From Escherichia coli (lineage in GTDB: Bacteria > Pseudomonadota > Gammaproteobacteria > Enterobacterales > Enterobacteriaceae): DNA of 5,732 nucleotides. Shown one piece after another: positions 1 to 5,732 of the stretch. The notes beneath the pieces are model-generated. The model was not told the origin of the DNA. It did no database searches and saw only the letters and a list, made by a program, of their open reading frames with translations. Position numbers and translations under genes: made by a program. Within the stretch, counting starts at the first letter, position 1, and every line of letters begins with the position of its first letter. The stretch lies in the NCBI RefSeq assembly GCF_030013595.1, contig NZ_CP122774.1, one strand, 5' to 3'.

Positions 1-495
1 ATGGCGGGCACAGTATGGCGTGACATAAGAACGGGAGAGACTGTTTTTCCTATGGGGCACCTGCACCCTCAGAGGTGCTGTGTTGATGTAAACGGTACTT
101 CTGTAGATATAGAAATTAGTTTTGGTTTTCATGTTTTTACTGATGAAAAACAAACCGGAATGCTGATGAAATTTAAGGAGGAACAGAGGTTTTTTTGTAG
201 GGAACGCTATGAGGGCAGCAAAACTATCGTTCACAGAATACTTACAGCGATAGAAAACGGTGAATACATTACAGCATTTATTTCAAAGGGGCAGGGGCAG
301 CGGTATTACCATCTTAGCCATCATGATGACTTCATTTTGATGGAAATAAGAAAGCCTCAAGATAGAAATAATTCTTTGCGTATTCATGTTGTTACAGCTT
401 ACACGCTTGATGAATGGGGGACTGTAAATAAAGGACGTAACCTGCGGTTTAGATATGTGCTGGAACAGCGACTGCAGGGAAAGAAGATTGTGTAA
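1..495 (+). CDS. Hypothetical protein, 164 aa as drawn; candidate distal gene of a two-gene accessory cassette. Start uncertain (ATG at 1, or internal ATG at 52).
   Basis: Uninterrupted ORF from position 1 to TAA at 493-495. AT-rich relative to the backbone. Followed at once by a strong hairpin terminator. An alternative start at ATG 52 is preceded by GGGAGAG (33-39). No family recognised by eye; the HLSHHDD and RIHVVTAY segments are not diagnostic. Confidence 0.5.
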   Translation: MAGTVWRDIRTGETVFPMGHLHPQRCCVDVNGTSVDIEISFGFHVFTDEKQTGMLMKFKEEQRFFCRERYEGSKTIVHRILTAIENGEYITAFISKGQGQRYYHLSHHDDFILMEIRKPQDRNNSLRIHVVTAYTLDEWGTVNKGRNLRFRYVLEQRLQGKKIV

Positions 496-4435: not shown

Positions 4436-4577
4436 TGCATAGCTATGCATGTGGTTAAAATTTACCGGGTGCGATCGCGGCAGTTTTTCGGGTGGTTTGT
4501 TGCCATTTTTACCTGTCTGCTGCCGTGATCGCACCGAACGCGTTTCTGCGGTGCGGGCAACGGATGTTATGGTAAAT
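4436..4577. other. cer/psi-like Xer site-specific recombination (multimer resolution) site: accessory region with a palindromic box plus XerC/XerD core
   Basis: Core GGTGCGGGCAA-CGGATG-TTATGGTAAAT (4550-4577). The right arm is identical to the cer/dif XerD arm TTATGGTAAAT as I recall it, and the left arm is GGTGCG..CAA like the XerC arms. A perfect 14-bp palindrome TGCATAGCTATGCA (4436-4449) lies about 100 bp upstream, where cer carries its ArgR box. Confidence 0.55.
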
Positions 4578-4693
4578 ATTGGTGCTCTGGGATGAAGCGA
4601 AAATAGGCTTTTTTTCGCTATTTTAGCCTGTTCAGGAACGGCAAGAGTAAATATCTGGGAGCATGAAGCTCGTTAACCTGAATGGAGATCCTG

Positions 4694-4858
4694 ATGATGG
4701 ACAAAGATACCACCACCCTAAAACGCACTTTGGCTCATAATCGAGCCTTTAGCGATAATATTAACCGCAGTGGCATAGCCTGGTGCTATAACACTGAGAT
4801 TGTACTCGCTGCTTGTGAGGCGATTGAAGCCGAACTACAACGGCGAGGATGTTTGTAA
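4694..4858 (+). CDS. Small hypothetical protein (54-55 aa: MMDKDTTTLKRTLAHNRAFSDNINRSGIAWCYNTEIVLAACEAIEAELQRRGCL)
   Basis: Not in the ORF track (below its length cutoff). GGAG at 4684-4687 sits 6 nt upstream of tandem ATG ATG (4694-4699). TAA at 4856-4858 is followed within 10 nt by a strong terminator. Confidence 0.4.
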   Translation: MMDKDTTTLKRTLAHNRAFSDNINRSGIAWCYNTEIVLAACEAIEAELQRRGCL

Positions 4859-4865
4859 CAATAAG

Positions 4866-4889
4866 AAAACCCGCATCAGCGGGTTTTTT
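4866..4889 (+). terminator. Rho-independent terminator
   Basis: aaaacccgc-atca-gcgggtttttt: perfect 9-bp stem, 4-nt loop and a T-run. Confidence 0.75.
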
Positions 4890-4960
4890 AGTCTCTGAGA
4901 CGCGCTACCGCTAAATTATTTTTCTCTCTATCCGCCCTGGCTTGCCCCCTACAACCCCAT

Positions 4961-5007
4961 GGAGCACAAGGAGCACAGGGAGAACCATCGAGCACAACGA
5001 GCACCGC
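4961..5007. repeat. Five tandem degenerate 9-bp repeats (G)GAGCACA-type
   Basis: ggagcacaa | ggagcacag | ggagaaccatc | gagcacaac | gagcaccgc, read directly from the sequence, immediately upstream of the AT-rich tract. Confidence 0.6.
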
Positions 5008-5009
5008 CT

Positions 5010-5190
5010 TCCTCTTATAAATCATTATTAATCATATAATTAAACAACTTCATTGTAATATATATTACTTTTTATGTTTTTAAATGTAATGTTTATTGCG
5101 ATTTAGCTTGTTTTTAACTCTATTTTTTCAGATGAGAACAAGCTGCCAGCAATGAATAACTATTTGATTTTATTGGTTTTTTCAATAAAT
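5010..5190 (+). promoter_or_regulatory. AT-rich leader or promoter tract upstream of the terminal gene (exact promoter not mapped)
   Basis: About 180 bp of strongly AT-rich sequence with several TATAAT-like and TTGA-like hexamers (for example ttataaatcattattaatcatataatt and ttgtaatatatattac), contrasting with the GC-rich backbone. Confidence 0.35.
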
Positions 5191-5219
5191 TAGTGTCCAT
5201 AGACAAACGGGAGACGACT

Positions 5220-5732
5220 ATGTCCGCAAGAGCAAGAAAAGCAGGTAAGAGAAATCAGTCAGAACGACGTCAGGATTTGATTGAAAAATTGTGGGAAGAC
5301 GACGAAATCGATACTTGGCATCGACTTGAAAATGATGGGTACTCAACAGTTCCACGTTATTTGCCTTTGATAGGCGATCTCATGGATGGTCTGTCAAAAG
5401 GATCACCATTATCAACAACCTACTTGGCTTTATGGTTCAGGGTTTCTGATGAGGGGTTGATTGAAATAAGAGATAAAGCAGCACTGGCTTTTGAATCAGG
5501 GTTCGCTAGTGAAAGAGGCGTAACTACATGGGCAGGGAGAATGAAAAAGCTAAAAGAACTGGGGTTCATATCCTGTCGTGAAGGCAGCACCGGTGAATTT
5601 CATTACGTGTTAATTGTTCACCCATTAGTTGCAGTCAAAAAGCTGCTTGATGAAGGGATTATCCCTAAAGGAAAGACTTATAACATTTTGTCGGAGCGTG
5701 TAATTGAGGTGGGAGCCTCTTGGGAGGGTTAA
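5220..5732 (+). CDS. Hypothetical winged-helix-like DNA-binding protein (170 aa from ATG 5220; the ORF track starts at GTG 5193). Candidate proximal gene of the two-gene accessory cassette.
   Basis: GGGAG (5208-5212) lies 7 nt upstream of ATG 5220. Basic N-terminus (ARARKAGKRNQSERRQ). The central segment TTYLALWFRVSDEGLIEIRDKAALAFESGFASERGVTTWAGRMKKLKELGFISCREGSTGEFHYVLI has a helix, helix-turn-helix and beta-wing pattern typical of wHTH regulators, Rep proteins or antitoxins. Stop TAA is the last three bases of the window. Confidence 0.6.
   Translation: MSARARKAGKRNQSERRQDLIEKLWEDDEIDTWHRLENDGYSTVPRYLPLIGDLMDGLSKGSPLSTTYLALWFRVSDEGLIEIRDKAALAFESGFASERGVTTWAGRMKKLKELGFISCREGSTGEFHYVLIVHPLVAVKKLLDEGIIPKGKTYNILSERVIEVGASWEG

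Follow-up and report, generated by a model that had tools for sequence, protein, structure and literature searches.

The origins of iteron plasmids such as pSC101, pPS10 and R6K bring together direct repeats, an AT-rich segment with an IHF-type site, inverted repeats, and the gene of a winged-helix protein. In omega/heptad arrays, repeats with a non-helical period are coated in a spiral by omega, a ribbon-helix-helix protein, while in type III toxin-antitoxin systems of the ToxI kind transcribed tandem repeats of approximately 34-36 nt are located directly 5' of the toxin gene. The stbS region of plasmid R388 is both the operator of StbA and a centromere-like site; it is composed of two sets of five 9-bp repeats with the consensus TTGCATCAT, with 2-bp spacers and an 11-bp period (10.1101/2022.04.29.490116). 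StbA assembles on these direct repeats, which lie 5' of its own gene (10.1101/2022.04.29.490116), and the same paper cites the formation of a filament on the direct repeats of tubC (as cited in 10.1101/2022.04.29.490116). Cox of phage P2 also assembles on direct repeats, namely on at least six similarly oriented boxes, with protection of approximately 70 bp (PMC3936717). Oligomerization of proteins of the Cox/Apl/Xis type is reported to bend or wrap the DNA (PMC3936717; PMC7498355).

The array analysed here is located in a 5,732-nt stretch of DNA (the window, by which the whole stretch is meant), a 5.7-kb mobilizable plasmid of the ColE1 type with a rom-like ORF and mbe genes among its ORFs; the record is circular, position 5732 joining position 1. 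A short block of GAGCAC-type hexamers lies upstream of the gene of a winged-helix protein, here called P1, which is followed by a variable cargo gene, gene 2 (Table 1). We see about an even chance that the block is a multi-site docking array for P1 which, together with a bend site, controls the operon of P1 and its cargo. From the comparisons presented below we infer that P1 is the protein binding the array, that a box downstream of the array is an IHF site and that transcriptional control is the output.

With StbA/stbS the locus shares a small HTH protein encoded directly 3' of 9-bp direct-repeat arrays as well as a location in the maintenance or leading region of plasmids. The P1 array differs in being one set of six with a 9-bp period and a GAGCAC consensus, its companions being a C-tract and an IHF-like box; the paired sets of five, spaced by 2 bp, that make up stbS were not found in it, and P1 has a wing and flanking helices that set it apart from StbA. 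P2 Cox, 186 Apl, and lambda Xis, which build filaments on direct repeats, resemble P1 as winged-helix proteins associated with such repeats and with combined regulatory and architectural roles, but Cox-boxes are spaced by 10-11 bp, one helical turn, and overlap promoters or attP, whereas the P1 array has a spacing of 9 bp. The order of elements in iteron origins (direct repeats, an AT-rich segment with an IHF-type site, inverted repeats, and a winged-helix gene) is also that of the P1 region; iterons are 17-22 bp long, however, against 9 bp for the units of the P1 array, and the P1 module, unlike iteron origins, is also found in chromosomes and in a phage. In TubR/tubC and omega/heptads a protein coats tandem repeats with a period other than one helical turn and a spiral nucleoprotein filament results, but these systems have partner NTPases or different folds, and the structural match of TubR to P1 is weak. 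In its working the array would resemble StbA/stbS, Cox-boxes, tubC, or iterons, but it has the defining features of none of them: period, unit number, consensus, protein family, and partner dependence differ.

The boxes of the window are separated by aag, agg, catc, and aac, giving start-to-start spacings of 9, 9, 10, and 9 nt. Tandem Repeats Finder reported the block at 4961-5004 with a period of 9, 4.8 copies and 77 % matches, and the same family was retrieved in a separate repeat search. Four of the six exact GAGCAC copies of the whole window are within these 43 nt. When the window was simulated 1000 times with a first-order Markov model, no hexamer ever occurred four times inside 45 nt (0/1000); three was the highest number reached, in 18 % of the runs. 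Chance or low complexity was rejected on this ground, and the block of tandem repeats proposed in the sequence-only reading is real.

Table 1 Features of the window with their positions and strands
Feature	Position	Strand	Remark
Gene 2, 164 aa, weakly YjaZ-like	1-495	+	Cargo slot 3' of P1
RNAI	1125-1226	minus	RNA-family match
cer-like XerC/XerD core, GGTGCGGGCAA-CGGATG-TTATGGTAAAT	4550-4577		6-bp central region
58-aa ORF	4682-4858		Between cer and array, with its own terminator
Hairpin and T-run	4866-4887		3' of the 58-aa ORF
C-tract block, TTGCCCCCTACAACCCC	4942-4958	+	Two C runs 5-7 nt apart; ends three bases before the array
Five hexamer boxes	4962-5004	+	GAGCAC 4962-4967, GAGCAC 4971-4976, GAGAAC 4980-4985, GAGCAC 4990-4995, GAGCAC 4999-5004; ancestral number six
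Degenerate distal box, TAAATCATTATTA	5018-5030	+	At the place of the conserved IHF-like YAANNNNYTGAWW box
Perfect palindrome, GTAATATATATTAC	5055-5068	.	Candidate operator
Second quasi-palindrome, GTAATGTTTATTGC	5086-5099	.	
Inverted repeat, AGCTTGTTTTTAACT / AGATGAGAACAAGCT	5105-5144	.	
Proximal box, TAACTATTTGATT (perfect YAANNNNYTGATW)	5157-5191	+	Overlaps promoter-like -35/-10
P1, 170-aa winged-helix protein	5220-5732	+	Gene always accompanied by the array

The repeat number of five given in that reading holds for the window but not as the original state. Six units were read directly in CP016039, in E. kobei p12379_3, and in contig L026, from which the window differs by the lack of one 9-bp unit, and the other twelve full-length plasmid matches (at least 97.9 % identity) are 9-10 bp longer than the query. 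The five-unit array is therefore a derived allele, arisen by slippage or through an assembly error. The family consensus of the units is G-A-(G/T)-(C/T/A)-A-C-a. In the 44 loci parsed, the most frequent number of units was six and 135 of the 224 spacings were 9 nt long (range 8-14).

A coding repeat, for example a collagen-like GGA-GCA-CNN, was rejected because no frame survives the units of 8, 10, and 11 nt and the ORFs over the block are short and not conserved; no reading frame was kept across the units or the homologues. The array might also be transcribed, and the repeat RNA would then either resemble type III toxin-antitoxin systems by acting as decoy or antitoxin, or offer a docking surface to an RNA-binding protein. 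In agreement with such a role, the C-rich oriented units are strictly confined to the P1 strand, unit lengths of 8-11 nt are tolerated, and a promoter scan yielded a minus-strand promoter-like site (5059->5031). A repeat RNA is nevertheless barely credible: a conserved promoter upstream was not found, the homology beginning at the C-tract, neither strand of the array folds better than shuffled sequence (z = +0.39 and -0.22), Rfam gave no match at E ≤ 1, and the array is kept where no nuclease gene follows. The lack of an Rfam match, the folding scores near zero, and the lack of a conserved upstream promoter also led to the rejection of a structured or known RNA. The repeats further depart from the ToxI type in their 9-nt units, in their location 5' of a winged-helix gene, and in being kept where there is no second gene.

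Positions 4912-5004 of the window match, at approximately 81 % identity, small plasmids of E. coli, Klebsiella, Salmonella, Serratia, Citrobacter, and Dickeya, and for the core of this segment (4943-5004) the matches extend to plasmids of Aeromonas and to IncR/IncF plasmids of 48-125 kb. In each record for which annotation was retrieved, the match is located approximately 225-240 bp 5' of a gene for a protein of about 170 aa, which is followed by a gene for a protein of 164-186 aa. A tblastn search with P1 yielded 164 plasmid records and two Burkholderia phages, a degenerate-pattern scan added 27 further genomic loci, and a profile search (E ≤ 1e-3) showed that the P1 family comprises 889 clusters at 50 % identity. 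The layout was examined in about 45 loci with P1 homologues of 33-83 % identity, from Alpha-, Beta-, and Gammaproteobacteria, Desulfobacterota, Bdellovibrionota, Planctomycetota, Verrucomicrobiota, Bacteroidota, and the P2-like Burkholderia phage Musica. The C-tract and the hexamer array were present 5' of the P1 homologue in nearly all of them, in at least seven phyla or classes and in the phage. The array is weaker in the most divergent lineages, a Pseudosulfitobacter plasmid having GAYAC units at approximately 8 nt, and no clear array was found in the MAG locus L047.

When 259 kb were scanned on both strands, chains of at least five units occurred once per locus, always on the P1 strand and 5' of P1, and the array was never observed apart from P1 in the loci scanned. 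In a pattern-free MAFFT alignment of six lineages, conservation was 94 % in the hexamer columns, 62 % in the spacers, and 61 % in the rest of the leader. It follows that selection maintains the hexamers and also their number, period, orientation, and position. Absence of the repeat from otherwise identical cassettes had been named beforehand as the result that would speak against a function; the repeat is kept with the cassettes in related plasmids, which is the opposite. The module, with its C-tract, approximately six boxes, IHF-like box, inverted repeats, promoter, and P1 gene, moves between replicons. The bare pattern is not diagnostic because it also occurs without P1: GAGCAC-N3 repeated three times was found in 120 stretches of viral contigs, and none of the 80 that were loaded encode P1 (0/80). 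Our guess is that collagen-like coding repeats are the source of these viral stretches.

Two single records may be mentioned here. Contig L026 is the 6.2-kb Pseudomonas reidholzensis contig NZ_UNOZ01000043.1, which carries a six-unit array and a P1 that is 100 % identical to that of the window; its occurrence in a Pseudomonas assembly means that either the plasmid has a very broad host range or an enterobacterial plasmid contaminated the assembly. The Cronobacter plasmid CP045781 carries, on the minus strand (L019 3460-3492), a second and shorter chain, AAGCAC GAGCAC GAGCAC CAGTAC, approximately 215 bp from RNAI. This four-unit chain is possibly a secondary site.

The product of gene 2 matches NCBIfam YjaZ with E=5e-6, far below the curated cutoff. 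It is unrelated to the partner, of PBECR2 type, that is found in the IncR/IncF cassettes, whose P1 is 78 % identical to that of the window. Elsewhere the slot is occupied by NYN, a YafQ/RelE toxin, Argonaute, or other unrelated proteins of about 170 aa, and it is empty at some loci, on plasmids of Acinetobacter, Pasteurella, Burkholderia, and P. syringae. The array is kept whichever gene 2 family is present and also when there is no gene 2, and for this reason P1 is its partner; in its inheritance the array follows P1, whatever the backbone or gene 2. A role of P1 as a protein antitoxin dedicated to gene 2 is unlikely, since P1 proteins that are 78 % identical, with near-identical C-termini, are paired with unrelated second genes. 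In a Bdellovibrionales MAG (L032 3070-4992), a 640-aa prokaryotic Argonaute (NCBIfam E=6e-81) is encoded 69 bp 3' of the P1 homologue, and P1 modules can thus precede cargo of the defence type.

The location that the sequence-only reading had assigned to the block, between the terminator of a small ORF and an AT-rich leader at the border of an accessory module, was confirmed. The hairpin with its T-run lies upstream, the GC content of the leader is 13-27 % from about position 5010, and homology with other cassettes begins at approximately 4912 in the ColE1-type relatives and at approximately 4943 in the IncR, IncF, and Aeromonas plasmids, which makes the block the 5' edge of the module. The 58-aa ORF is confined to the plasmid lineage of the window and has no family match. 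The proposal that the repeats are an insertion or recombination scar, left where the cargo joined the ColE1 backbone, had to be abandoned. The same array and P1 are present on IncR, IncF, RepM, pB1000-type, and rhizobial plasmids, in chromosomal contigs, and in a P2-like phage, and the hexamers are under selection. Because the backbones differ (ColE1-like, IncR, IncF, and MobV/MobQ plasmids), a ColE1 junction was rejected.

The element adjoins the downstream side of the cer core in plasmids of the pIMVS1 type, whereas in the window an extra ORF and terminator lie in between, core and array being 384 bp apart with these included. The distance from the core to the start of the array is only 60-100 bp in pIMVS1-type, Cronobacter, K. 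grimontii, and Rosenbergiella plasmids. Placement of the array near a cer-like core may explain the exchange of cassettes among plasmids of the ColE1 type. The short distances in several ColE1-type plasmids could also point to an accessory site for recombination, at which P1 would act as a directionality factor like Cox, Apl, or Xis on repeats beside a tyrosine-recombinase site. A tyrosine recombinase gene is indeed present just 5' in P. syringae pPT14-32 and approximately 1.2 kb 5' in phage Musica, and the six or more boxes of Cox have IHF nearby. We regard this function as highly improbable: in the window the 384 bp intervene, most loci have no adjacent recombinase or core site, the modal spacing is 9 nt instead of the 10-11 bp of directionality-factor arrays, and P1, with approximately 170 aa, is about twice the size of the known directionality factors (70-90 aa for Cox, Apl, and Xis). 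A partner recombinase is likewise missing from most P1 loci, a recombinase gene or core site adjoining the array in some of them only.

Several other elements are located between the array and P1 or directly 5' of the array. The C-tract block is invariant in alignment A2, and blocks of the form CCCC(T)-N5-7-CCCC precede the array in most loci, in several phyla. Downstream of the array, the distal box YAANNNNYTGAWW is the IHF consensus read on the other strand. Counted from the start of the last unit, 16 of 39 loci have a YTGAWW hexamer that begins at a distance of 23-27 nt, most often 26 nt; the box is degenerate in the clade of the window, which has TTATTA at exactly +26 from the start of its last unit. 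No conserved -10 was found after the distal box, because of which a sigma-70 promoter was rejected and the box is more likely a bend site; by its consensus it is a candidate IHF-type site.

The palindrome at 5055-5068 is conserved in alignment A2 and is present in cassettes of Acinetobacter, Rosenbergiella, and Pasteurella. Together with the quasi-palindrome at 5086-5099 it is a better candidate for a classical operator than the array. The half-sites TATTAC and CATTAC fit the unit pattern, a resemblance that is weak and by itself not significant: outside the array, the leader holds 5 unit-like hexamers where 2.7 would be expected (p=0.12). In the place that corresponds to the inverted repeat at 5105-5144, other lineages have a CAACTCA-N5-TGAGTTG inverted repeat that is conserved in sequence. 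The palindromes and the inverted repeat are located between the distal box and a second copy of that box, which overlaps the putative proximal promoter. This promoter consists of a -35 TTGATT (5164-5169), a 16-nt spacer, and a -10 TAAATT (5186-5191); it scores 8/12, under the 9/12 threshold of the promoter scan, and TTGAWT-16/17-TAnAAT is conserved in the gammaproteobacterial cassettes. The P1 gene starts with the ATG at 5220 and has GGGAGA as its ribosome-binding site. The distance between the array and the proximal promoter is 190-500 bp.

P1 had no match in Pfam, NCBIfam, PHROGs, or PADLOC, P1 and array together had none in these or in Rfam, and a profile search of PDB chain sequences gave nothing significant for P1. 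An AlphaFold2 model (pLDDT 89) predicts a winged helix-turn-helix flanked by one long helix on its N-terminal side and by two helices on its C-terminal side. The structural neighbours of this model (DnaD-like, TFE, RepA_N, MarR, and TubR) are weak and generic for the fold; with Foldseek, MarR proteins and TubR were matched at an E of about 0.02. Residues that are invariant or nearly so (R99, T103, W104, R107, M108, G122, and G125) cluster in the recognition helix and the wing, the first five, which are nearly invariant, being those of the recognition helix. A model of a linker-fused dimer reached a pTM of 0.80, which suggests that P1 is a homodimer. No clear signal of covariation was obtained between the hexamer variant (GAGCAC versus GATAAC/GATTAC) and the residues of the recognition helix.

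The lack of residue-to-base covariation would be expected if the array were bound by a conserved host factor or a further gene product and P1 used only the palindromes. Conservation of the hexamer across phyla despite a divergence of P1 to approximately 33 % identity, and the resemblance of the palindromes to ordinary dimer operators, would both fit this possibility. It is nonetheless quite unlikely, as the array was never apart from P1 in the loci scanned and the recognition helix of P1 is itself nearly invariant. To our knowledge, no host factor recognizes a GAGCAC motif.

If the array is a docking site for P1, it would be the distal part of a conserved control region of approximately 300 bp that travels with the P1 gene. 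P1, probably a homodimer able to form higher oligomers, would read G-A-K-H-A-C hexamers with its conserved recognition helix and would be loaded cooperatively onto about six boxes, 9 bp apart. Because this period is shorter than one helical turn, the bound subunits would spiral around the DNA, as on omega/heptads and other repeats with a non-helical period. The IHF-type bend site approximately 20 bp downstream would then fold the complex of P1 and array onto the palindromic operators and the proximal promoter, and the output would be a tight, dosage-sensitive autoregulation of the operon of P1 and cargo. This mechanism is supported by an architecture that is kept 5' of P1 homologues down to 33 % identity, by the location of the most conserved residues of P1 in the recognition helix and wing, matching an equally conserved DNA motif, and by the fixed distance between the array and the YAANNNNYTGAWW box. 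StbA on stbS (10.1101/2022.04.29.490116) and P2 Cox (PMC3936717) are precedents for the assembly of winged-helix or HTH proteins on five to ten direct repeats 5' of their own genes. A simple operator would, however, be expected closer to its promoter than the 190-500 bp observed, arrays that are bound on one face of the DNA do not usually have a 9-bp period, and the missing covariation also speaks against the mechanism, as do the degenerate state of the distal box in the clade of the window and a C-tract block for which the mechanism has no role. The true P1 sites could be the TGTAAT..ATTACA palindromes or the CAACTCA..TGAGTTG inverted repeat instead of the array.

An operator array or iteron-like sites for the winged-helix protein had been among the roles first considered. 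The association with this protein is borne out by the co-occurrence of array and P1 across phyla, which is close to complete, and by the strict orientation in chains of at least five units, so that binding by P1 is a plausible extension; iterons of a working origin are unlikely. The carriers have other replicons, with RNAI in the window and in seven other plasmids, RepM on the Acinetobacter plasmid, and on the Pasteurella plasmid a non-coding ori region common to pB1000-type plasmids. There is no DnaA box in 4900-5220, the only matches to TTWTNCACA being located at 489-497 and 1698-1706. A primary replicon was rejected because every small plasmid checked has another replicon and a DnaA box is lacking. 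An auxiliary or vestigial origin, at which P1 would be the initiator on iterons, would account for the direct repeats, the AT-rich stretch, the IHF site, and the inverted-repeat operator; P1 was not found to belong to a known Rep family, and we consider such an origin very doubtful. Several homologues of P1 are named 'Replication protein' in UniProt and one 'DnaA N-terminal domain-containing protein'. Both names look unsupported, as every carrier plasmid checked has a separate replicon.

A centromere-like or stability site has somewhat more in its favour, although it too is unlikely. P1 and the array would form a partition or positioning complex without an NTPase encoded by the cassette, comparable with StbA/stbS of R388, Par of pSK1, or a filament of the TubR/tubC kind, and autoregulation would be a side effect. 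On small plasmids, P1 and array form a self-contained unit without a cargo gene, and on large plasmids the module lies amid leading-region and maintenance genes (for an ArdC-like zincin, UmuD, MobC, and ParA). TubR is one of the weak structural neighbours of P1, and StbA binds arrays of 9-bp direct repeats 5' of its own gene. On the other hand, most carriers are multicopy plasmids of the ColE1 type, which are least in need of partition, the module is also present in an integrating P2-like phage and in large chromosomal contigs, and no similarity of P1 to StbA or TubR was detected in the libraries searched. The centromere-like and auxiliary-origin readings share the binding of P1 to the array with the docking-array mechanism and differ from it in the output alone.

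No description of this module was found in the literature searched for the motif and for PBECR2. An anonymous repeat of a 'cryptic' small plasmid thereby becomes a defined, testable cis-element with a named partner. The uncharacterized winged-helix family of this partner comprises approximately 890 clusters and occurs in many phyla, in chromosomes and prophages as well as on plasmids. The depth to which motif, unit number, and period are conserved far exceeds that of ordinary operators, and the array is therefore a good model for nucleoprotein complexes on short direct-repeat arrays. The variable nuclease/Argonaute slot suggests a portable regulatory platform for conflict-related cargo, and array and C-tract together provide a sequence signature with which such cassettes can be found and delimited. 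Going further, P1, C-tract, six-box array, and bend site might constitute a phylum-spanning control or maintenance platform of mobile elements, a nucleoprotein switch without partner NTPase that would sense copy number or entry into a new cell and would license the expression of the cargo present (RNase-like proteins, YafQ, NYN, or an Argonaute) or tether the element for inheritance; this is a speculation of low probability.

Two further elements were observed on the cargo side of the plasmid. A full-length match to sraL, a family of Hfq-binding sRNAs, is present on the minus strand at 496-629 (84.7 bits, the gathering score being 39) and converges on gene 2 at its 3' end. The same sraL element directly follows gene 2 of pIMVS1_EHS (L003 1958-2092, 89 bits), and a plasmid-borne sraL homologue tied to this cassette variant is unexpected. 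At 675-767, four overlapping direct repeats of the type TTTATAGGT(G/T)TTCAT, with spacings of 39, 10, and 10, are located directly 5' of a 100-aa AlpA/excisionase-like HTH ORF (768-1070; TIGR01764 and MADS1-like matches). These repeats and the HTH ORF make up a second, unrelated pair of repeat array and DNA-binding gene on the plasmid.
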